Shown piece after piece: positions 1 through 25,377 of a stretch of 32,000 nt of DNA. The notes under the pieces are model-generated. The model was given only the letters and a program-made list of their open reading frames with translations, ran no database searches and had not been told where the DNA came from. The translations under genes and the position numbers were made by a program. Where the stretch lies: assembly GCA_029861345.1 (NCBI GenBank), contig JAOTZM010000001.1, positions 29,096 through 61,095 of the forward strand. The letters are read 5' to 3'. Each line of letters begins with the position of its first letter. Position 1 is the stretch's first letter. The DNA comes from Nitrosopumilus sp. (lineage in GTDB: Archaea > Thermoproteota > Nitrososphaeria > Nitrososphaerales > Nitrosopumilaceae).

Positions 1-1709
1 AATTCGTAGGCATATTTGTCGCTGGATATAAGATCACTTACAGGAAACCATGTTTCATCATCTCCTAGGAGAATGATTTGAGGTTCAGAATTTTTTTTAC
101 TGTAATTAAGTGCTGAAGATGCGGACCCTTTAGAGTCAAAAGGAGATGAAAAAGTCAAGGGGGCACCTGAAATTTTTGGTGAAAATCTACCATCTCGAGG
201 TACAAAACCTAGAAATTCCGATGCTATTATTTCATCACTCAAATTTTCTGCAGAAAAGTCATGAAGAATAGTATCTCCATGATCAGCTAAAACCACGTTT
301 CCATATGCAACACTTATCCTAAGTTTTTCTGGTTCCTTTCCTACATTTGAATCAGGATCCACTGCATTTTTCTCCCAGAGACACAAAGGAAATGGCAATG
401 CGTCCTCATCGTTCCAACTAATTTCAACAAGAGGAATCTGAGTTAATTCATCAAGGATATTTGTTACCGAAGTTAGACGTACTGCATGTTTATGAGATAC
501 ATCACGATCAGATTTTCTCCAAGTTAGAGGAGAACGTATCTCTTCAAAAATCAAAACATCCCCTTCTTGTAATGTAAGATTGTTGTCATACAAAGTGGCA
601 GATGTTGTTCCTTTTGGTAAGGTGCACTTTGGATCATCCCATGTGTAAAAGTAGATTTCATTGTGTTCTGAATAAAGCTCAACATCATGCATTGTTTCAA
701 AAATCTGAGTATCATCTTTTATTTCCCTATCAAAATCATAAGGCCTTACAACTGTCTTTGTAGAATTGAAGCTGTTAGTTAGGAGTTTTGTTCCCTCGGG
801 AATCAAAATCGGCATATTTTCAGAGTTTTTATTTTTTGCCAAGATATCATTTACCTGGATTGTTATCCAAACACGCGAATTGCATCCCTCGTTAATGAAA
901 TAATCAAGCAATCTTGCATGACGTCTAACTGAAATTCTTTGGCGAGCAGTAGAAAGATAGGCTTCAGTAGCTACTGCATCTTGATAATAGCTGAGCTGAT
1001 CCCCTACATAGGCAAGCATTTCAATTATGGCTACGCCCATATCGGCAGGGTTTTGCTCATTCCAATTTGGGTTTATCAGAGAAAGCCTGTCAAGCATTAA
1101 TTTGCGAAAGCTTGTATAATCTTTTGACATATAGTCAATTACAGGCTCAGAGATTGGCGGCAATGAAGGGATATTTTTAGAATTTAGTACACTTTCAGCA
1201 TAATCAAAGTTAACAGGACAATCGATTCTAAAGCTAAAATCAGTTTTTGATAAGATAGTATCAAAATTAGGAGGAGGTTTGTTATAGTCATCAGATGAGA
1301 CCAATTGTATAGAATACAAAGTCAGGTCGCCTACTTTATCAGGTCTGACAACAAGAATCTTTTCAGGATTATCTCTTAATTCTGCTATTGTAGATTCTTC
1401 TTTTGTTAACAATTTAGATGAGAGGTTAGAGTCTGCAAGAAGAACATTTGCAGGATATGCCCACTCTACGTTTACGTTCTTAATTCTAATGCCACCATCA
1501 ATTAGAACATTGTCTTCACTTAGATTACTAATTGGTTTAAGGCAATGAATTAAAATAAGGGATCGAAAAGATTCTTCTGAAATATCAGGTGATAAAACAA
1601 AGTCAGAAATTTTGTTTGTAAAAACATCTAGATAGTCAATTCCGTTTATTGTTTTTGATTCTTTTACTGCAATTCTCCTTTCAGAATTATCACACGTTTG
1701 AGATGACAA
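1..1709 (-). CDS. Baseplate-J/gp6-like baseplate assembly protein of a contractile phage-tail-like module (Afp11-like, TIGR02243-type). Only the N-terminal ~569 aa are visible; the 3' part lies beyond the left edge.
   Basis: My own translation of the minus strand is open with no stop from position 1733 down to the window edge. The first start-like codon is TTG at 1709-1707. It sits 1 nt after the gp25 stop and 6 nt after an SD-like GGAGG (1720-1716). Conserved blocks read from the sequence: CDNSERRIAVKESKTINGIDYLDV; DYMSKDYTSFRKLMLDRLSLINPNWNEQNPADMGVAIIEMLAYVGDQLSYYQDAVATEAYLSTARQRISVRRHARLLDY; GDVLIFEE..HAVRLTSV..LVEISWNDEDALPFPLCLW; AYGNVVLADHG. From memory these match the 'putative baseplate assembly protein' family found in eCIS/phage-tail-like loci. 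It is absent from the supplied ORF track because it has no ATG start and is truncated by the window. Confidence 0.75.
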   Translation of the reverse strand, partial: MSSQTCDNSERRIAVKESKTINGIDYLDVFTNKISDFVLSPDISEESFRSLILIHCLKPISNLSEDNVLIDGGIRIKNVNVEWAYPANVLLADSNLSSKLLTKEESTIAELRDNPEKILVVRPDKVGDLTLYSIQLVSSDDYNKPPPNFDTILSKTDFSFRIDCPVNFDYAESVLNSKNIPSLPPISEPVIDYMSKDYTSFRKLMLDRLSLINPNWNEQNPADMGVAIIEMLAYVGDQLSYYQDAVATEAYLSTARQRISVRRHARLLDYFINEGCNSRVWITIQVNDILAKNKNSENMPILIPEGTKLLTNSFNSTKTVVRPYDFDREIKDDTQIFETMHDVELYSEHNEIYFYTWDDPKCTLPKGTTSATLYDNNLTLQEGDVLIFEEIRSPLTWRKSDRDVSHKHAVRLTSVTNILDELTQIPLVEISWNDEDALPFPLCLWEKNAVDPDSNVGKEPEKLRISVAYGNVVLADHGDTILHDFSAENLSDEIIASEFLGFVPRDGRFSPKISGAPLTFSSPFDSKGSASSALNYSKKNSEPQIILLGDDETWFPVSDLISSDKYAYE

Positions 1710-1710
1710 A

Positions 1711-2073
1711 TCAGACCTCCGTTGTAAATTGAGCTACAGTACTGGCAGATTTGTTTTTGATTTTGTATTGAACTGTAATAACTAGTTTTGATTCATCATT
1801 TTTTATCATTACAGATTCAACAGTGATCAAGTCGCCGAGCCACTTTTGAAGAGAGCCTTGAACAAGAAATTGTGTTGAGATTACTAGTTCATCGCTGTTT
1901 GATGCAAAAACTAATTGGTTTAAGCCACATCCAAAATCAGGTCGGTTTACCCGTTCTCCAGGAGATGTAAAAAGAATCTGTTCTATCATCTGTTTGATAT
2001 GAATGTCATTGTCAACTGTTGCGGTGTTTCCGTTCTTATCAATTTGAAAAGGAAAATTATAATGCATTTTCAC
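1711..2073 (-). CDS. GPW/gp25-family baseplate wedge protein (Afp9-like)
   Basis: 120-aa ORF. The motif IEQILFTSPGERVNRPDFGCGL is the hallmark of the GPW/gp25 family (Pfam PF04965, recalled). The start is GTG at 2073, giving a GTGA overlap with the upstream stop, or ATG at 2067. It sits between the PAAR-like and baseplate-J-like genes. Confidence 0.85.
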   Translation of the reverse strand: MKMHYNFPFQIDKNGNTATVDNDIHIKQMIEQILFTSPGERVNRPDFGCGLNQLVFASNSDELVISTQFLVQGSLQKWLGDLITVESVMIKNDESKLVITVQYKIKNKSASTVAQFTTEV

Positions 2074-2405
2074 ATTCCTTTGACTCTAGGCTGAGTTACA
2101 AGAATATTGGGAGGTCCTTGTGGTGCCTGTGCAGCGCTCTGACAGATTCCTGTACTAGTTTTTAGGATTACCTGTTGCCCATTAATCCGAACTCTTGTAG
2201 CTGGAACTAACCATCTCACAAGTATACATGGTTGTGGACTTGGAGATGTTGCAAGAAAAGTACATCCAGCTACTGTAAAAGTATCGGACATTGTAACAAC
2301 TGGTTGTCCTGATACCTTCACCCGGGTGTTGGAAGTAATTGCAGTAACATTGCCCATATGAGGACAAGTAATGGTAGCACCAACCTGAACTATTTCACTT
2401 GACAT
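2070..2405 (-). CDS. PAAR-like / DUF4280-like spike-tip (cone) protein
   Basis: 111-aa ORF with ATG at 2405. It has three short beta-strand repeats with conserved Cys/His/Gly: ITCPHMGNV..RVKVSGQPVV; VAGCTF..PQPCILVRW; RVRINGQQVI..TGICQS. These resemble PAAR-like/DUF4280 domains that cap VgrG/gp5 spikes. It lies immediately 5' of gp25, as in many eCIS loci. There is no literal P-A-A-R motif, so the family call is tentative. Confidence 0.55.
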   Translation of the reverse strand: MSSEIVQVGATITCPHMGNVTAITSNTRVKVSGQPVVTMSDTFTVAGCTFLATSPSPQPCILVRWLVPATRVRINGQQVILKTSTGICQSAAQAPQGPPNILVTQPRVKGM

Positions 2406-2593
2406 TAAGAATAATCCTCATTTGGTATGAAAAATATGTCTAAAAAAGAATTTAACATAACAAAAGAACTGAATTCAAACATCGTGTTTCATGTTGATTT
2501 GAGTTTACTAATTATTAACATTTATCATGAGATTTGTATTTCTAAAAAAATAATTTCCGAGATCTTTAAAATATCAAAATATTGAATTAATCT

Positions 2594-2603
2594 AAAGAAA
2601 AAA
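2594..2603 (-). terminator. Oligo-T tract (archaeal-type terminator candidate) downstream of the 221-aa gene
   Basis: The minus strand after the stop at 2629 reads AAAAACCCTACCCCTCAGGTCCAAGTTTTTTCTTTAGA. A T6 run followed by a T3 run lies about 25 nt after the stop. This separates the 753-aa/221-aa operon from the baseplate operon. Confidence 0.3.
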
Positions 2604-2628
2604 CTTGGACCTGAGGGGTAGGGTTTTT

Positions 2629-3294
2629 TTACAATGAATAATTTATCTCTGAAAGGTCTTTTTCAAATTCTAATTCTTTTAGGACTTTTGGTTCGTCAAC
2701 AGAAATAGCATTATGAAAACCACGAAACTGCAGCAATGATATTTTTAGATGAGATAGCAGATTTCCCAAATGAATAATTCTTTGGTCCTCATTTGAGAGA
2801 AATCCTAAATCAAACATTTTAACATCTGAATCAATCTGAAACAGAGCTTTTAATTTTAGTACTTCAACTCCGTTTATTTTTTTTATAAATTCTACATAGG
2901 GTTTTATTGGATCCAAAGTAAATTCTAGATCAAACTTTACACTCTTTTCAATTCCTTGAGTTTGAATTTTAATATTATCCAGTAGAAGCTGTCCAAAATA
3001 AGAAGGAATTTGTTGCATTAATTTTTCAACTATTTTGTTTGCCAATCCTGAAAAGACAGAATCAACCTTAGAGACTGTATCTGTAGAATATGTGTCTTGG
3101 ACTGGAGATATTGGCGATGCAAAATTTTCAATATTTTGAGAATTTGCTGATTCTTTTATCCATTCTTCTACTTCCTGAAACTCCTGCAGATAACTCAATT
3201 CGGTATTGTCTTTTATTGCCGATGAGATACTGTCTTCCAAAGGAGGTGTTATTTTGTGTAACACTTCAGGCATAGGATTTGAAATGTCTGACAT
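2629..3294 (-). CDS. Hypothetical acidic protein (221 aa), co-transcribed with the upstream PKD/Ig surface protein
   Basis: ATG-initiated ORF beginning 15 nt after the stop of the 753-aa gene. I see no TM segment or signal peptide and recognise no family. Confidence 0.6.
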   Translation of the reverse strand: MSDISNPMPEVLHKITPPLEDSISSAIKDNTELSYLQEFQEVEEWIKESANSQNIENFASPISPVQDTYSTDTVSKVDSVFSGLANKIVEKLMQQIPSYFGQLLLDNIKIQTQGIEKSVKFDLEFTLDPIKPYVEFIKKINGVEVLKLKALFQIDSDVKMFDLGFLSNEDQRIIHLGNLLSHLKISLLQFRGFHNAISVDEPKVLKELEFEKDLSEINYSL

Positions 3295-3309: not shown

Positions 3310-5571
3310 TTATTTTTCAAGGCCACTCCTATATTCGACAGTTACTGTAGACTGTATAGGCTTTGGTTCTGTTGGAGGTTCAGGTTTATGTATCAAAGTC
3401 TTTGCTGCAACGCCACCTACACTTGCTGCAGCTACTCCACCAATTACAAGTAGTGCCCAGGGAAACTGTTCTTTTACATGAACCAATATTTCTTGTGTAT
3501 CTTTACCACCATCATCATCTGCAATTACCAAAGTTATGGTGTAATTACCTGGTTTTTCGAATTTGTAATTTTGTATTACAGATTGAGGTGAATCTGTTTC
3601 ATCTGCATATTGTTTATTATCTATATACCATATTATTGTAAAAGTATCATCTTTACCAGGATCTGCAAACATACCTTCAAATCTTAATGATTCGTTAGGC
3701 TCTATCTCATAGCTTTCAGAATTAAATGTAATTTTAGGTGCCTTATTTTTAATATCTAATGTTTTATCTACAGAGATTTCACTAAGGGAATCTCTGATTG
3801 AAAGTCTTACCTCATATTGACCATTATCATTATAACTATGAGTTACCTTATTATTATAACCAAAATTTCCATCACCAAAATCCCAAAGATAGCTGTCAAT
3901 GCCTTGTAGATTAGAACCACTAGTAGTAAATGTGATTTTAGATCCTTCTTCCATAGTGCCGGTAACTACAATTTCAGGTTCTGGTATAATCACTTTTTTT
4001 ACGGTAATGTATGTACTGGTTGTTTTTTCTTGTTGAATAGAATCAGTTACTGTAAGATTTACTTCGTAAGAATTGTTATCAGCAGTATGAAAAACATAAC
4101 TTAAATTTTCTGAGGGAGGAAATGAATTATCATTAATCTTCCAAAGAAATTGGTATGGAGGAGCTCCTCCCAAAACTTTGGACTGAAATGTCACTGTCAG
4201 TGGAGGCTCTCCTGATGTCTTATCTGGAATTATCTCTACATGTAATGGAGTCGGAACATCGTGCTTGAGAACAGAAAATACCACTTGGTTACTTGTAAAA
4301 TCTCTACCATTACATTCACATTGTGCATAAATGCTCTTTTCTCCTATGTATTCATCAGGTAAATTCCAAGTGCTAGAAAAACTTCTGTCATCAAGGATAG
4401 TTGAGGTAGATCTTAACGTTTCATCTATTTCTTTTATTAGAACTATTTCATCCTGAAATCCATCATTTGTTATGTATCCTTGTAAAATAACGTTTGAACC
4501 TTGCTTAGCATTAGATATAGGTTCAAGAATTAATTTTATTTCGGGCGGCTGGGGTGGGATAATTGAAATAGGATCTACAGTAACAGTAATTGGTAAACTA
4601 GACCCTGATGGAACTCCTTTTAAGAAGGATTTGAATTGTACATAAATCTGATGAGTGCCAATATCCTCAGAATTAGTATTCCATGTTCCTCTATAATTTC
4701 CATTTGCATCAGTAGTAGCAAAACCAATTTCACTTCCATCCGATTTATGTATAGATACAAACGAGCCAGATAATGGTTTTCCATCTTGTAACAAATTTCC
4801 TGAAAAGTTAATTGTTTGGCCCTCTGTGACACTAGTTGGAGTGGCGTGTAATGTTAAAGTTGGAAGAGCTAAAATATCAATGTCAACAGGATTGCTATTA
4901 TCTATGAAACGTACATCAGGATATGTTGCATGATTCTCAACTGCAACCAGGGTATAATGACCAATATCATTGGCGGTTGTGTTCCAATCAATAGAATATT
5001 GACCCTTAGGATCAGTTATAGTATGTTCAATTATTTGTGGCGGTGTGGAGCTATCTATTATGGATATGATTTTACCTGAGAGCGCAAAATGTCCATACAA
5101 AAAACTTCCAGAAAATGTAATTGTTTGACCTTCTGTGATACTAGTTGGAGTGGCGTGTAATGTTAAAGTTGGAGGAGATATCACTAAAGTTTTTTGAGTT
5201 TGGTAAAGTAAAAAACCACTAAGTCTAGGGCTTGATGCCTTAATTGTATGCTTTCCTTTATTATCACTTGAGTCAGTATTCCATGTTAAAGAATAATTTC
5301 CATTTGGATCAGTAGTAACTTGTCCAAGGGTTTCACGTGTAAAGACATCCACTATAGTAACTACTCTGCCTGCAATACCTCTTCCATTATCGATATACTT
5401 GCCTGAAAAAGTCACTGGCTCGCCTGCCTTGACCTCTGAAGGCGATATGGTTAATGTTAAACGACTAGATACCTGTTGCGCACTTTGTGCTAAAACAGTT
5501 TCTGTTGGAAAAACAATTGTAACAGATAGAAGCAATACAATAATCGGAATTAAGAAATACCAAATTTTCAT
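3310..5571 (-). CDS. Secreted, C-terminally membrane-anchored surface protein with Ig-like/CarboxypepD_reg-like repeats and three PKD-like domains
   Basis: N-terminal signal/TM segment (MKIWYFLIPIIVLLLSVTIVF). Three repeats of the type TDPNGNYSLTWNT / TDPKGQYSIDWNT / TDANGNYRGTWNT, preceded by PTLTLHATPTS(I/V)TEGQTI(T/N)FSG. PKD-type blocks include the classic WDFGDG..THSY..G.Y.V.L.. motif (YLWDFGDGNFGYNNKVTHSYNDNGQYEVRLSIRDS). A C-terminal TM helix (FPWALLVIGGVAAASVGGVAA) is followed by a short tail. Confidence 0.85.
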   Translation of the reverse strand: MKIWYFLIPIIVLLLSVTIVFPTETVLAQSAQQVSSRLTLTISPSEVKAGEPVTFSGKYIDNGRGIAGRVVTIVDVFTRETLGQVTTDPNGNYSLTWNTDSSDNKGKHTIKASSPRLSGFLLYQTQKTLVISPPTLTLHATPTSITEGQTITFSGSFLYGHFALSGKIISIIDSSTPPQIIEHTITDPKGQYSIDWNTTANDIGHYTLVAVENHATYPDVRFIDNSNPVDIDILALPTLTLHATPTSVTEGQTINFSGNLLQDGKPLSGSFVSIHKSDGSEIGFATTDANGNYRGTWNTNSEDIGTHQIYVQFKSFLKGVPSGSSLPITVTVDPISIIPPQPPEIKLILEPISNAKQGSNVILQGYITNDGFQDEIVLIKEIDETLRSTSTILDDRSFSSTWNLPDEYIGEKSIYAQCECNGRDFTSNQVVFSVLKHDVPTPLHVEIIPDKTSGEPPLTVTFQSKVLGGAPPYQFLWKINDNSFPPSENLSYVFHTADNNSYEVNLTVTDSIQQEKTTSTYITVKKVIIPEPEIVVTGTMEEGSKITFTTSGSNLQGIDSYLWDFGDGNFGYNNKVTHSYNDNGQYEVRLSIRDSLSEISVDKTLDIKNKAPKITFNSESYEIEPNESLRFEGMFADPGKDDTFTIIWYIDNKQYADETDSPQSVIQNYKFEKPGNYTITLVIADDDGGKDTQEILVHVKEQFPWALLVIGGVAAASVGGVAAKTLIHKPEPPTEPKPIQSTVTVEYRSGLEK
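4802..4864. repeat. Intragenic repeat copy A (pairs with 5111-5173; offset 309 bp = 103 codons)
   Basis: By-eye alignment gives 58/63 identical bases, including a perfect 33-bp core ctagttggagtggcgtgtaatgttaaagttgga. It encodes the PTLTLHATPTS..TEGQTI.FSG domain boundary of the 753-aa protein. Confidence 0.8.
5111..5173. repeat. Intragenic repeat copy B (pairs with 4802-4864)
   Basis: See copy A. The same 33-bp perfect core lies at 5141-5173. Confidence 0.8.
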
Positions 5572-5896: not shown

Positions 5897-6991
5897 TTAG
5901 TTTTTCACGCCTGATGCCAAAACAGCATCTGTAATGATACTAGTGTATTTTTTCATTGGATCATCAGAGTTTTTAGGTATTAGTCCACGTGTCTCAGCTA
6001 TTGCCGCAGCAGTAATCCTTTTGTTTACTTCTGCTTCAAATATCCCCTCAAGTGACTTGTATGCCCAGCCCTCAGCACCAGTATTTTGCAATAAATCCTT
6101 TACATATCCCCGGATAAAGGCCTCTTTTACTTTCTCGTCTTTTGTCTGCCATTCCACAATATATGGCACAGCATCAACACTTTGTTTTATTATTTTCTCG
6201 ACTTGCTTTTGTTCTAATGGAAAACTTTCAATTTTCTTTTGCGCAACTGCTGCCTCTATTGCCTTTTTGAATACTTGACCGCCAACATTTGATAACAAAT
6301 TTGAATATCTCTCGCCACCAAAATTTTGATAAATAGAGTTTAGTGCCAAGTCTTGAAGTTTTTCTTTATAATTTTGTGGAAGATTCCCGTCATCGTCTCT
6401 TAATTGTGCAGCTGATTTTTGATACATGGATACTGCCTTAATTGCGTCCTGTGTGATCATGGTTATTTGTTCAGATTTTATTTGAATATCATATTTTTCT
6501 TTTAGAAATTTTGAAACTATCGGTCCCACTATAGTCGCCACTAGTACCATAAAGAAGTTTGATTCTAAAATTCTGGTAAAGGGGTTTTCAAATCCTGCCG
6601 TGTTACAGTTTGGAAGAGGGCATATTATTGCAAGAACCATCAATAAACCAATTACAACAATTGTAGATATGGCAATATAGTCCATATATCGTGAAAACTT
6701 TTTTTCTTCAGCAGTCCTTTTTTCATCATCTTTTAGTTTCTTTGGTGTCTCAATTTCGTTTAGCTCTTTTTCGGTTTTTTTACTTTTTGCAAAAAGGGCT
6801 ATCTTGTTTTCTTGGCATTTTTTCAGTATCTTATCAAAAATGGCTTTTTGGTTTTCAGGAATGTCATCTTTTATCTTTTTTAGGTTAACGTCATATTCTT
6901 TATCTCCCATCTCTTTGCATAACTTTTCATTAATTTGCCACTCATCGTCAATCTTTGTCACAAGTTTTTCTGAGGAGATATTCACTGTCAC
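5897..6991 (-). CDS. Hypothetical membrane protein: charged ~100-aa N-terminus, two TM helices, long helical C-terminal region with an internal duplication
   Basis: 364-aa ORF. The annotated start is GTG at 6991, and the first in-frame ATG is codon 28. TM candidates are YIAISTIVVIGLLMVLAIICPL and FFMVLVATIVGPIVSKFL. The C-terminal halves end in similar motifs: KKAIEAAVAQKK and EGIFEAEVNKR. Confidence 0.6.
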   Translation of the reverse strand: MTVNISSEKLVTKIDDEWQINEKLCKEMGDKEYDVNLKKIKDDIPENQKAIFDKILKKCQENKIALFAKSKKTEKELNEIETPKKLKDDEKRTAEEKKFSRYMDYIAISTIVVIGLLMVLAIICPLPNCNTAGFENPFTRILESNFFMVLVATIVGPIVSKFLKEKYDIQIKSEQITMITQDAIKAVSMYQKSAAQLRDDDGNLPQNYKEKLQDLALNSIYQNFGGERYSNLLSNVGGQVFKKAIEAAVAQKKIESFPLEQKQVEKIIKQSVDAVPYIVEWQTKDEKVKEAFIRGYVKDLLQNTGAEGWAYKSLEGIFEAEVNKRITAAAIAETRGLIPKNSDDPMKKYTSIITDAVLASGVKN

Positions 6992-7372: not shown

Positions 7373-7801
7373 ATGGCAAAGAGACATGCAACACCGCAAG
7401 ATAAGTTTAGATTTTCTACAGGTAACTTTATTTTCCGTTCAGGCAAATTGGTTGATCCTAATGGTTCTGAAGGGAAAATAATTGAATCTATTCTGAGAAG
7501 ACAAAAAGAAACTAGGGAACTCAATGCAAGACAAAAAGAGAAATTTCAAAAGATAACCAGTGCCAAAACCTACAAGGATGTGTTGCACTTGATCCAACTA
7601 AAACCGGGCAAATCAACTATTCCTGCACGCGAACAAATGAAGAGAATGACAGACAAAAACAGATGGCATCTTGGAGACAAAACAAAAGAGGTATTACTTC
7701 AAGAAAAAAAAGCCCTTGAGAACATAAAACCTGGATTCAGAGACTCTTTGTGGTTAAAGAAGCATACTGCCCTAAATAGAGCTATCAAAGATCTGTTTTA
7801 G
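7373..7801 (+). CDS. Hypothetical basic protein (142 aa)
   Basis: ATG-initiated ORF, rich in Lys/Arg. I recognise no family. Confidence 0.5.
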   Translation: MAKRHATPQDKFRFSTGNFIFRSGKLVDPNGSEGKIIESILRRQKETRELNARQKEKFQKITSAKTYKDVLHLIQLKPGKSTIPAREQMKRMTDKNRWHLGDKTKEVLLQEKKALENIKPGFRDSLWLKKHTALNRAIKDLF

Positions 7802-8135
7802 AAAGAGATGTAATAGATAAGCAATTCATTGCAACTTGACTTGTTGTAGCATTAGTGTTGGACTGCTATATTTTATAGGCTAACAGTTTTTTAATCTCCA
7901 TTCTGTAAATAATTTTTTTCTTCAAACTCTGCATGAACTTTTATCAAATTATCGGATTCATCCGAGTTCTTTGATTATATCAATCCAAAACTTCCATGTT
8001 TATTAGTAACTCTGATTTCCGGCCGTCATAACGTTATAGTTTTAGTATTGACTATATGTTGTTTCCAGCAAATCATATCATCGTCTCCCTTTAGTCAATC
8101 TGTAAAATTTGTTCGTAAAAGGGAGGATTCTCTTT

Positions 8136-14571: not shown

Positions 14572-14850
14572 ATGGTATTAGTTAATAAAAAAATTCTGTC
14601 AGGAGGGATTACGATGTTAGTTGTAGGGGGAATAATTTTGGTTTACTTGAACTCAGCAGTTCCTGTAGGACAATCTGGAATGACCGAAGAAGAGATTCTA
14701 GATTTAATGGTTAAAGAGCAAGAGAATCAAGACATGAATACTCTTGCAGGAATTTTGTTTGGAGTAGGGTTTTTGTTAGTTTTGATAAGTTTTGGAGCTA
14801 GAAGAAATAAAGATAGTACCAAAAAAATAGAAAAAAAACCAGCTGAATGA
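14572..14850 (+). CDS. Hypothetical two-TM membrane protein (92 aa)
   Basis: Two hydrophobic helices (ITMLVVGGIILVYL and LAGILFGVGFLLVLISF) separated by an acidic loop, with a basic C-terminus. Confidence 0.5.
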   Translation: MVLVNKKILSGGITMLVVGGIILVYLNSAVPVGQSGMTEEEILDLMVKEQENQDMNTLAGILFGVGFLLVLISFGARRNKDSTKKIEKKPAE

Positions 14851-23425: not shown

Positions 23426-24877
23426 ATGAACAAATCAATTCTAAAATCACTACAGCCAACAATTAAAGGAGATGTTTTTTCTCAAAAGGAATTCAGAGAA
23501 TTTTATTCTGTGGATGCAAGCTCATACCAAATAATTCCAAAAGTAATAGTAATTCCAAAAAATGAAAAAGATGTAATTAATGCAGTAAGGATTGCAAATA
23601 AATTCAAAACATCAATTACCGTACGAGGTGCGGGAACAGGGCTTGTCGGAAGTGCATTAAACAAGGGAATAATTCTGGATATGAAGAATTTTGTTTCGTG
23701 TAAACTTGCCAAAGATAGTGTAATTGTAGGTCCAGGCACAATTAAAGGCAAACTTGACAGGAAACTAGAGGAGTGTCAAAAGTTTTTTCCACCTAATCCG
23801 TCAATTGGTTCTTTTTGCTCAGTTGGTGGAATGTTAGGAAATAATTCCAGTGGAAGCAGAAGTCTAAAGTATGGAAGTGTTATTGATAATGTCTTAGAAA
23901 TTACATTTGTTGACGGCAATGGAAACAAGATTACTCTTCCAAAAAATAAAAGAGTTGCAGAAAAGATTTTAGGGTTTACCAAAAAAATTGATAAATGTGG
24001 ATTCCCAAATGTTACAAAAAACTCTTCAGGGTATAGAATTGACAAAGTAAAATCAATTAATGATGCTCACAAAGTAATCATAGGTTCTGAAGGAACATTA
24101 GGTATTGTTTTATCAGCAAAACTGAAAATCAGGAATAACCCAAAAAAGAGAATTCTTTTTGTAATAGAGTACAAATCAATTATGGATGCCTCAAAAAATT
24201 GTATTGAGATCAATAAAACAGAGCCATCTGCAATGGAATTTGTAGATAGAACGACACTTAATCAAATAAAATTCAAATTTAACAAGAAAACAAAATGTTT
24301 ACTTTTTGTAGAGTATGATGAAAATATTAGTTTTAATGAAAAGAAATTAAAAATAATATCTACTGGAAATATTATTAAGATATTTAAAAAAAAGGCTGAA
24401 ATTTCTCAGTGGTGGAAATATAGAGATCTATCATTGTATTATAGTTTAAAATCAATAAAAAAAGAGAAACGAGTTCCACATGTAATTGAAGATGCTGCAG
24501 TCCCTTTGGAGAGTCTTCCAAAATTATTTACAATTTTAAACAAGATAAACAAAAAATATAAAACTAAATCAATTGCTTATGGACACATAGGAAACGGAAA
24601 TATTCATTTCCGTTTGGTTTCAGATAGAAAAAAAATTGTTGCCATAAAAAATATCGCAACACAGTACTTTGAGGAAATAATCAAGCTCGGTGGAACCATA
24701 ACTGCTGAACACGGAGATGGTCTTGCTCGCTCAGAATTTGTCAGAAGACAGTATGGTGCAAAGAACTATGAAGTATTCAAAGAAATCAAAAAATTCTTTG
24801 ATCCAGAAGATATACTCAATCCAGACAAAATAATCACAAAGAAAAGTACCATTATAGAAAATCTAGAAAAGTTCTAA
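23426..24877 (+). CDS. FAD-linked oxidase (GlcD / D-lactate dehydrogenase-like, FAD_binding_4 family)
   Basis: 483 aa. FAD-binding PCMH-type motifs (VRGAGTGLVGSA, GGMLGNNSSGSRSLKYG, GSEGTLGIV) and a C-terminal block AEHGDGLARSEF. Confidence 0.85.
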   Translation: MNKSILKSLQPTIKGDVFSQKEFREFYSVDASSYQIIPKVIVIPKNEKDVINAVRIANKFKTSITVRGAGTGLVGSALNKGIILDMKNFVSCKLAKDSVIVGPGTIKGKLDRKLEECQKFFPPNPSIGSFCSVGGMLGNNSSGSRSLKYGSVIDNVLEITFVDGNGNKITLPKNKRVAEKILGFTKKIDKCGFPNVTKNSSGYRIDKVKSINDAHKVIIGSEGTLGIVLSAKLKIRNNPKKRILFVIEYKSIMDASKNCIEINKTEPSAMEFVDRTTLNQIKFKFNKKTKCLLFVEYDENISFNEKKLKIISTGNIIKIFKKKAEISQWWKYRDLSLYYSLKSIKKEKRVPHVIEDAAVPLESLPKLFTILNKINKKYKTKSIAYGHIGNGNIHFRLVSDRKKIVAIKNIATQYFEEIIKLGGTITAEHGDGLARSEFVRRQYGAKNYEVFKEIKKFFDPEDILNPDKIITKKSTIIENLEKF

Positions 24878-24948
24878 TTTATTTAAAGTTAAAATCAAAA
24901 ATATCAATTCAGAAACGCTTTATTAACAAAAAAATTGTCCAAAATACT

Positions 24949-25377
24949 GTGTTAAGTAAGGCTATAGGAGTATTAACAATTTTACTAGTATTTACTATTA
25001 GTTTTACCCCGGTATTTGCATCAACAGAATTACAAAGAGCAACGATAAGTGATCCAAGATTAGAAAACTTTTTTGGTTCACAAATAGTGGATAATGTGAA
25101 TGTAAATCAACAAATTCAAATCTCATCTGACATTACAAATCTTCAAGAAAAATCCCAAGCATTTGTGTATCTTGTCCAAATAAAAAATAAAGTAGGTTTT
25201 GTTGTTTCATTGGGATGGATTAGTGGACAATTAACACCAGATCAAAAACTTAGTCCGTCATTATCATGGGCTCCCGATAAGGAAGGAGAGTTTACTGCAG
25301 AAATTTTTGTATGGGAAGGACTGATAAACCATAGTGCATTATCTGAATCTACAACATTACAAATCAACGTCAGTTAA
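24949..25377 (+). CDS. Hypothetical secreted protein (142 aa)
   Basis: GTG start. Signal peptide (LSKAIGVLTILLVFTISFTPVFAS). I recognise no family. Confidence 0.55.
   Translation: MLSKAIGVLTILLVFTISFTPVFASTELQRATISDPRLENFFGSQIVDNVNVNQQIQISSDITNLQEKSQAFVYLVQIKNKVGFVVSLGWISGQLTPDQKLSPSLSWAPDKEGEFTAEIFVWEGLINHSALSESTTLQINVS

Follow-up and report, generated by a model that had tools for sequence, protein, structure and literature searches.

A predicted contractile injection system on the chromosome of the ammonia-oxidizing archaeon Nitrosopumilus

The left edge of a 32,000-nt stretch of Nitrosopumilus sp. DNA (GCA_029861345.1, contig JAOTZM010000001.1, positions 29,096–61,095 of the forward strand; hereafter "the window") carries three minus-strand genes for baseplate and spike proteins. 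These genes very likely form the beginning of the main operon for a complete contractile injection system (CIS) on the Nitrosopumilus chromosome, for which we weakly favor release from the cell over anchoring in the cell envelope. In window coordinates, the three genes are:

2070..2405, minus strand, PAAR/DUF4280 spike tip (Cis10-like), 111 aa, ATG start, first gene of the main operon
1711..2067, minus strand, gp25-like baseplate wedge protein (Cis9-like), 118 aa, PF04965, ATG start at 2067
1..1709, minus strand, J1, Baseplate_J/TIGR02243 wedge protein (Cis11-like), 874 aa in full, TTG start, first 569 codons present and cut at the window edge

The open reading frames (ORFs) appear in the ORF list and in the raw sequence where the initial annotation placed them, on the minus strand at 2070..2405, at 1711..2073, and as a long ORF from the TTG at 1709. 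Its assignment of the three proteins to PAAR-like, gp25, and J-like families also holds, as judged from hidden Markov model searches, homologues, conserved residues, and a structural model. The gp25 protein matches PF04965 (E 9e-17; 61 bits, cutoff 27). The window fragment of J1 matches TIGR02243 (E 5.6e-33), and the full 874-aa sequence, read from a contig that matches the window at 100% identity, reaches 243 bits for TIGR02243 (cutoff 155.8) and 40.6 bits for PF04865 (cutoff 21.1), with the baseplate J protein of the Streptomyces CIS (9gtp_1K) as its best sequence match in the PDB. The PAAR-like protein by itself matches DUF4280 below threshold (24.1 bits against a cutoff of 26.3, E 5.6e-5) and has no PDB sequence match. 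Many of its 147 detectable homologues have PF05488 and/or PF14107 matches, many are labeled by JGI as "Zn-binding protein involved in type VI secretion", and an identical protein is named "DUF4280 domain-containing protein [Nitrosopumilus sp.]" by NCBI. Residues Cys14, His16, Cys48, and Cys60 are invariant. The best structural matches to its AlphaFold model (pLDDT 80) are PAAR proteins (9jg9_B, 9vyi, T4 gp5.4 4ku0_D, and 4jiw_D; template-modeling scores 0.55–0.72), comprising a type VI secretion system (T6SS) PAAR protein on VgrG, the phage P1 baseplate, T4 gp5.4, and E. coli c1882; the Foldseek probabilities are 0.98–1.0, with E-values of only 0.1–0.2, none of which reaches 0.001.

The junctions between the genes are tight, but not quite as first described. 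The PAAR gene stops with TGA at 2072–2070, and a GTG at 2073 overlaps this stop (GTGA, 2073–2070), which had been taken for a translationally coupled start. The GTGA is present, but the conserved start of the gp25 gene is rather the ATG at 2067, 2 nt past the PAAR stop: gene callers use this ATG to give a 118-aa protein, the closest relative has GTA in place of the GTG, and the homologues all begin with MHY, MQY, or MNI at the ATG. The next junction is as proposed, in that the gp25 stop (1713–1711) is followed by one base and then by TTG (1709–1707), with a Shine-Dalgarno (SD)-like GGAGG at 1720–1716. The TTG start of J1 is supported by its ATG-starting homologues, since they share the motif RRxAVKESKTxNGIDYL(D/E)V within approximately 10 residues of the start. 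The further claim that this largest gene would be invisible to ATG-based gene callers does not stand, as such a caller would trim approximately 190 residues and still find the gene.

The remainder of the system lies to the left of the window. An exact-sequence look-up of the PAAR-like protein in JGI, ENA, Logan, and NCBI assemblies found public contigs that agree with the window at every base over up to 12,405 bp and run on leftward. The left side was read from the 56,607-bp contig JAOUAR010000001.1 (GCA_029860705.1), from position 14,730 to the end; its sequence is the same as JGI Ga0224503_10000012. Three overlapping loci join without mismatch into a 61,473-bp composite that includes the window, and the identical cluster sequence occurs in six metagenome samples (JGI, ENA, and Logan). 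The complete cluster spans 25.7 kb, of which the three genes in the window make up the first tenth. A scan of species-representative genomes matched only a Blastocatellia metagenome-assembled genome (MAG) at 40% identity, so the genome of the window is not itself a species representative, and a metagenome scan returned distant relatives only (loci L006–L009). A fiber protein 87% identical to that of this cluster (P0001) is on record without a contig.

The search leftward that the initial annotation had proposed recovered a sheath (PF04984), a tube (PF06841), a Pvc16_N/DUF4255 cap, an AAA+ ATPase, and a DUF4157 effector. Coordinates for the main operon are given in JAOUAR010000001.1, where the PAAR-like tip is at 24730–25065. 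Following PAAR, gp25, and J1, this operon encodes, in order:

J2, distant paralogue of J1, 877 aa, TIGR02243 at 179 bits (cutoff 155.8), J1 and J2 being 21–28% identical (E 7e-13)
P2_I/TIGR02242-like wedge protein (Afp12-type), 697 aa, PF09684 at 27 bits (cutoff 20.6)
DUF6519/eBAP5 fiber, 1361 aa, with an FG-GAP-like repeat match
Sheath, 499 aa, PF04984 and PF17482
Tube, 170 aa, PF06841, TIGR02241 at 145.8 bits (cutoff 62.4)
T4_baseplate-like zinc-ribbon protein, 281 aa, two Cys clusters, no PDB sequence match
Low-complexity protein, 345 aa, in the position expected for a tape measure, no family match
Pvc16_N/DUF4255 cap, 404 aa, E 9.3e-36
Afp15-like AAA+ ATPase, 665 aa, WHD and AAA, Cdc48/VCP type
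Two small ORFs, 94 and 76 aa, no family match for either, the 76-aa ORF being an orphan effector leader at 44602–44832 (L015 17520–17750)
eCIS_core/DUF4157 effector, 392 aa, at 45147–46325 (L015 18065–19243), PF13699 at E 1.3e-32, HELTH motif

A second operon converges on the main operon and consists of ORFs of 274 and 69 aa followed by:

CIS_tube-like adaptor, 219 aa, 29 bits (cutoff 27)
96-aa protein with a weak LysM signal
GPD-like hub, 379 aa, full-length match (37% identity, E 3e-78) to a Phage_GPD hub of a bacterial relative
gp5-OB spike/Phage_base_V protein, 164 aa, PF04717

The NCBIfam model VgrG_rel is covered in succession by the 379-aa and 164-aa proteins, which on this evidence are read as a split VgrG; its genes lie at the opposite end of the cluster from the PAAR gene, approximately 22 kb away. 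The initial annotation had considered the hub gene absent; there is indeed none beside the PAAR and gp25 genes, but the hub is encoded in the convergent operon. Taken as an inventory for the eCIS/PLTS superfamily of Afp/PVC-like CISs, as delimited in two genome surveys (PMC8213781, PMC12210884), the cluster has sheath and tube, wedge, hub, spike, and PAAR, cap and ATPase, and DUF4157 cargo, and no head genes were found in the 61.5-kb composite. The NCBI annotation pipeline already names most of these parts. The fiber domain DUF6519 is the published eBAP5 baseplate-attachment domain of extracellular CIS (eCIS) fibers (PMC12923769). Two related clusters (L012 and L014) encode homologues of the 345-aa protein that are 50% identical to it. 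As a separate observation, the 274-aa ORF, which is outermost in the convergent operon (L019 6189–7013; 49595–50419 of the record), has a sub-threshold match to an IS1595-type DDE transposase (E 9.5e-4) and may be a relic of mobility that rearranged or imported the cluster. Past the cluster lie genes for a lectin, a 358-aa protein, an Exo_endo_phos nuclease or phosphatase, and other small genes.

The effector gene has a modular structure. The 392-aa protein is composed of an N-terminal segment of approximately 72 aa, the eCIS_core domain with the HELTH (HExxH) motif, two adjacent hydrophobic helices at residues 292–337 that form a transmembrane (TM) hairpin, and a charged coiled-coil tail. Just this N-terminal segment recurs, at 73% identity, in the 76-aa ORF upstream. 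In the related clusters L012 and L014, the leader of approximately 72 aa is found again in two to three effector genes or orphan fragments, joined to different bodies, which suggests that it may be a shared loading signal on exchangeable toxin bodies. This pattern fits the N-terminal loading signals described for the payloads of the Photorhabdus virulence cassette (PVC; PMC11495950). It also agrees with the DUF4157 proteins that are secreted cargo of the haloarchaeal system (PMC11566945); such proteins serve as a marker of eCIS loci (PMC8213781). A different cargo gene was seen in the related cluster L011 (positions 1–1168; ENA ERZ28013244 k141_2367189), where the gene immediately upstream of PAAR encodes an 808-aa protein with eCIS_core and an XOO_2897-type deaminase toxin domain; the fiber protein of L011 is 53% identical to that of this cluster. 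This gene illustrates the variability of the cargo at that position.

The injection system is judged to be genuine and probably functional. The hub, spike, and PAAR tip would act as the nucleus for a wedge ring of sixfold symmetry, which gp25, J1, J2, and the P2_I-like protein would build and which would carry the DUF6519 fibers. The tube and sheath would polymerize on the baseplate and be capped by the Pvc16_N protein, with the AAA+ ATPase aiding assembly and cargo loading. DUF4157 effectors bearing the common leader would be loaded into the particle, and the contracting sheath would drive the spike and cargo into a neighboring cell, where the TM-hairpin effector may attack the membrane. We take the system to be an injection particle that brings DUF4157 cargo into other cells; we give a particle released from the producer slightly less than an even chance and one anchored in the envelope a smaller share, the rest being left to an intracellular role or to inactivity.

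Known systems resemble the Nitrosopumilus cluster to different degrees. The best solved matches to its sheath are from Streptomyces (8bky, 253 bits; 8bl4, 244 bits) and from a haloarchaeon (9ezm, 233 bits), whereas the sheaths of PVC and of the Serratia antifeeding prophage (Afp) reach 146–152 bits over the C-terminal half only (6RAO and 6J0B) and that of a pyocin reaches 38.6 bits. The haloarchaeal CIS of Halogeometricum borinquense (clade IIa) was characterized in 2024, in structure and in function, as a membrane-anchored T6SS that kills other archaea (PMC11566945). It has in common with the Nitrosopumilus cluster an archaeal host with an S-layer, the sheath, tube, gp25, PAAR, P2_I-like, Pvc16_N, and AAA+ components, the distribution of structural genes over two subclusters, DUF4157 cargo, and the lack of a recognizable tape measure (Cis14); the gene names Cis11a and Cis8a imply a duplicated J protein and a split VgrG there too. 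On the other hand, the host of that system is a halophile that carries the cluster on a plasmid, whereas the Nitrosopumilus cluster is chromosomal and its host a chemolithoautotrophic ammonia oxidizer. A six-TM anchor (Hbor_38620) is present there and none comparable was seen here, the DUF6519 fiber is found here, the gene order differs (baseplate block first and hub block convergent in Nitrosopumilus), and the Nitrosopumilus system is known from its genes alone.

The CISs of Streptomyces coelicolor and S. venezuelae (8BKY, 8BL4, and 9GTP) have the same core parts and provide the best solved matches for both sheath and J protein. However, they act inside the producer, are tied to cell death and development, and belong to hosts in another domain of life, whereas the lectin-like fiber and the leader-bearing DUF4157 effectors of the Nitrosopumilus cluster suggest delivery to other cells. 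Its parts also match those of Afp and PVC (Afp1/5, Afp2-4, Afp7-12, Afp13, Afp15, and Afp16), which likewise lack head genes and carry effectors with N-terminal loading signals. Unlike these systems, which have three sheath genes and an adenovirus-like Afp13 fiber, the Nitrosopumilus cluster has one sheath gene, a DUF6519 fiber, a split VgrG, and a rearranged gene order, and no homologue of the tape measure was found in it.

The rearranged order is shared with other ammonia oxidizers. In bacterial relatives, the canonical order is hub, gp5-OB, PAAR, gp25, J, J, P2_I-like, and fiber, and in the Blastocatellia locus L010 the cluster stops after the fiber. In Nitrosopumilus and in the related clusters L011, L012, and L014, the sheath and tube genes come directly after the baseplate and fiber block, and the cap and ATPase genes come later (for L011, past the contig end). 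The block of adaptor, LysM-like, hub, and spike genes of Nitrosopumilus is displaced and inverted relative to L022 and L010. The baseplate-to-sheath order is also found in a Thaumarchaeota MAG (L026, SCLI03000113.1) and in the closed genome of Candidatus Nitrososphaera evergladensis SR1 (L025), where the cluster is chromosomal (CP007174.1, 416513–438078). The N. evergladensis cluster has the same series of J, J, third wedge protein, DUF6519 fiber, sheath, tube, T4_baseplate-like protein, unannotated protein of approximately 350 aa, Pvc16_N, and AAA+ genes, together with a convergent block of genes for a 237-aa protein, a 95-aa protein, a 379-aa hub, and a 170-aa gp5-OB protein. It differs in belonging to a soil lineage of another order, in having an extra 143-aa gene before the sheath, and in having no DUF4157 gene within the 21.6 kb compared, which runs from the J proteins onward. 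Its sheath is 56% identical to that of L011. The rearranged order is conserved across two orders of ammonia-oxidizing archaea, and, being common to Nitrosopumilus and Nitrososphaera, it is old and has been maintained.

Sequence comparison with a relative (L014/L023, with a PAAR protein 81% identical) also points to maintenance. The ratio of nonsynonymous to synonymous substitution rates (dN/dS) is 0.03–0.16 for PAAR, gp25, J1, J2, P2_I-like, fiber, sheath, tube, cap, and ATPase (0.14 for the PAAR-like protein and 0.05 for gp25) and 0.34 for the 345-aa protein, all values being approximate as dS is 0.7–2.5 and thus near saturation. The core ORFs are intact in independent assemblies from the six metagenome samples. 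The structural genes are apparently under purifying selection, and the system appears to be maintained.

The host is Nitrosopumilus, in agreement with the initial annotation: in clusters built at 90% identity, EF-2 and TFB of the window group with proteins that, where named, all belong to Nitrosopumilus sp. In addition to these two genes, the remainder of the window encodes MqnA- and MqnC-like menaquinone enzymes, superoxide dismutase, an Lrp regulator, DnaJ, and an SNF2 helicase. The GC content of the cluster (0.349) is close to that of the housekeeping part (0.337), and no tRNA gene that could serve as an integration site lies on either side of the cluster, so there is no sign of recent import. 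In a related Nitrosopumilus (L027, a 1.84-Mb contig whose EF-2 is at least 90% identical), the gene order follows that of the window from a radical-SAM gene via TFB and MqnA to the end of EF-2, and beyond EF-2 the 10 kb of L027 that were compared share nothing with 37.6 kb of the composite. This break in synteny indicates that the cluster lies in a strain-variable island that starts at approximately position 8135 of the window. The island is at least 37.6 kb long and includes the CIS as well as genes for 142-aa, 364-aa, 753-aa, and 221-aa proteins.

An alternative origin for these genes would be the tail module of an integrated or decaying Nitrosopumilus myovirus, that is, a head-tail provirus. 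Caudoviral proviruses are known in this phylum, every core part of the cluster has phage tail homologues, the strain-variable island begins right after EF-2, and a weak transposase-like match (the 274-aa ORF described above) lies at its end. Nevertheless, a provirus is extremely improbable, in agreement with the initial annotation, which had favored a domesticated tail-like particle. Neither Pfam lists nor our own scans found capsid, portal, terminase, protease, or integrase genes in the 61.5-kb composite, which does not reach the far boundary of the island, whereas the Pvc16_N cap, the AAA+ ATPase, and the eCIS_core effector are present and CIS-specific; surveys use the cap, ATPase, and DUF4157 genes as markers that separate CISs from phages and pyocins (PMC8213781, PMC12210884). 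Viral relatives are distant or lacking: among 50,697 phage genomes, the best match to the sheath is 30% identical and J reaches 29% at best, in an alignment that covers less than half of it, and the fiber, the only query used there, has no relative in 2.9 million viral contigs (IMG/VR). By contrast, with the sheath of the related cluster L011 as the query, chromosomal CIS sheaths from other organisms show 56–64% identity. The GC content matches that of the host, and purifying selection on all structural genes is strong. An R-type tailocin (pyocin/diffocin type) was also considered and rejected, as the cluster has the AAA+ ATPase and Pvc16_N, the scans revealed no lysis genes, and the pyocin match to the sheath is that of 38.6 bits given above. 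It is also very unlikely that the cluster is an inactive relic of horizontally acquired genes that no longer make a working particle, even though the canonical gene order is broken by the displaced and inverted hub block (compared with L022 and L010), an orphan 76-aa leader fragment is present, and no tape measure was recognized. Against decay stand the intact core ORFs in several independent assemblies, the low dN/dS values, and the retention of the rearranged order between Nitrosopumilus and Nitrososphaera.

How the particle would act is less certain than what it is. The same machine could operate as an archaeal T6SS, kept inside the cell with its baseplate anchored to the cytoplasmic membrane and firing through the S-layer on contact, which we regard as possible if rather unlikely. 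The sole functionally studied archaeal CIS works in this way (PMC11566945), its sheath is among the best solved matches, and it has in common with the Nitrosopumilus cluster the two subclusters, the lack of a recognizable tape measure, the split Cis8 and duplicated Cis11 (both implied there by gene names), and the DUF4157 cargo; nor were lysis or release genes found in the Nitrosopumilus cluster. However, among 26 proteins of the cluster and its flanks, hydropathy scanning revealed no multi-pass protein like the six-TM Hbor_38620, the maximum being two TM-like segments (in the 364-aa protein and the effector); the comparison with Hbor_38620 is one of segment counts, so that a nonhomologous anchor is possible. 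Moreover, the large DUF6519/eBAP5 fiber belongs to a type catalogued for target binding by free particles. A CIS that stays in the cytoplasm and acts on its producer, through regulated cell death or in response to stress or viruses as in Streptomyces, is quite unlikely. The closest solved sheaths and J protein being from Streptomyces, together with the failure to find release or anchor genes, would fit such a role, but the fiber and the leader-bearing TM-hairpin effector point to delivery elsewhere, and the Streptomyces likeness reflects lineage rather than mode, as the sheath of the haloarchaeal T6SS is also closest to Streptomyces Cis2. A complete CIS, with weak preference for a released particle, is thus the favored interpretation, and several points weigh against it. 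Particle formation and expression are predicted from the genes alone, and the dN/dS values are approximate. All genes left of window position 1 are known from other assemblies of the same population. The family search of the cluster proteins recognized no tape measure, and the cluster scans identified no lysis or release gene, membrane anchor, or immunity gene. Finally, the sheath is nearer to the Streptomyces and membrane-anchored haloarchaeal systems than to the released PVC and Afp, which weakens the released-particle part in particular.

Ammonia-oxidizing archaea perform a key step in the global cycling of nitrogen and are usually portrayed as small, streamlined autotrophs that compete mainly by their affinity for ammonia. 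If the interpretation given here is correct, some populations of ammonia oxidizers fight or manipulate their neighbors directly, by means of interchangeable toxin cassettes. A broader proposal, which is doubtful, is that ammonia-oxidizing archaea have their own long-maintained CIS lineage with a signature gene order (baseplate genes ahead of fiber, sheath, and tube, plus a convergent split-VgrG operon) common to marine Nitrosopumilus and soil Nitrososphaera, engage in antagonism via membrane-inserting DUF4157 effectors, and possess a new lineage-specific part in the 221-aa protein encoded upstream of the PAAR gene. Under this proposal, the targets may be other nitrifiers or bacteria, and the 221-aa protein may act as an anchor adaptor, regulator, or immunity factor.

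The initial annotation had called archaeal CISs essentially uncharacterized, which is outdated in view of the 2024 haloarchaeal study (PMC11566945) but still applies to ammonia oxidizers as far as searched: a full-text literature search found no description of CISs in ammonia-oxidizing archaea apart from one table entry, in which the N. evergladensis sheath is listed among chromosomal sheath homologues (PMC9230969). In each of two large surveys, one of isolate genomes and one of MAGs (PMC8213781, PMC12210884), archaeal CISs were reported from one phylum only. The Nitrosopumilus cluster and its N. evergladensis counterpart widen the known host range of CISs, and N. evergladensis, as an enrichment culture with a closed genome, offers an experimental handle. 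The advance is in host range and ecology and not in mechanism, because the machine is a recognizable CIS, most parts of which the NCBI pipeline had already named.

On the window side of the cluster, the island comprises the following features:

2406..2628, minus strand, AT-rich spacer upstream of the operon, 223 nt, with a T-tract after the stop codon of the upstream gene
2629..3294, minus strand, 221-aa protein, candidate accessory gene, directly upstream of the PAAR gene here and also in the closest related cluster
3310..5571, minus strand, 753-aa PKD/Ig surface protein (signal peptide, Big/PKD repeats, TM anchor at the C-terminus)
5897..6991, minus strand, 364-aa protein with two TM segments (TM scan)
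7373..7801, plus strand, 142-aa protein of the strain-variable island

The spacer and its T-tract are present as initially annotated. Its proximal part of approximately 150 nt (2406–2555) has approximately 80% nucleotide identity to L023/L024 and contains a TATA-like TTTTTTAGA, an SD-like GTGAGGAT, and the palindrome GAAACA-N2-ATGTT. This part is more conserved than the adjacent 221-aa gene, the product of which is only 36% identical, and such conservation beside a diverged neighbor fits a regulatory region; it is probably a promoter and operator. A structured RNA was considered for the spacer and rejected (z = 0.47, no Rfam match).

The 221-aa protein has a 216-aa counterpart at the same position in L023/L024 (36% identity, E 7e-36), where the PAAR protein is 81% identical. 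Its family comprises 76 cluster representatives among 1.84 billion, and neither a Pfam match nor a PDB sequence match was found for it. The AlphaFold model is confident (pLDDT 86.5) and combines N-terminal helices with a sheet whose strands are very long; the fold comparison gave no meaningful match. It is possible that this protein is an accessory of the injection system. The 753-aa, 364-aa, and 142-aa genes make up the rest of the island on this side and are only candidate members of the system; they fall in 90%-identity clusters of 1–6 members, compared with 984 for EF-2. The 753-aa gene contains internal DNA repeats (4790–4868 and 5099–5177, 88.6% identical), and it ends 15 nt from the 221-aa gene, with which it may be co-transcribed.

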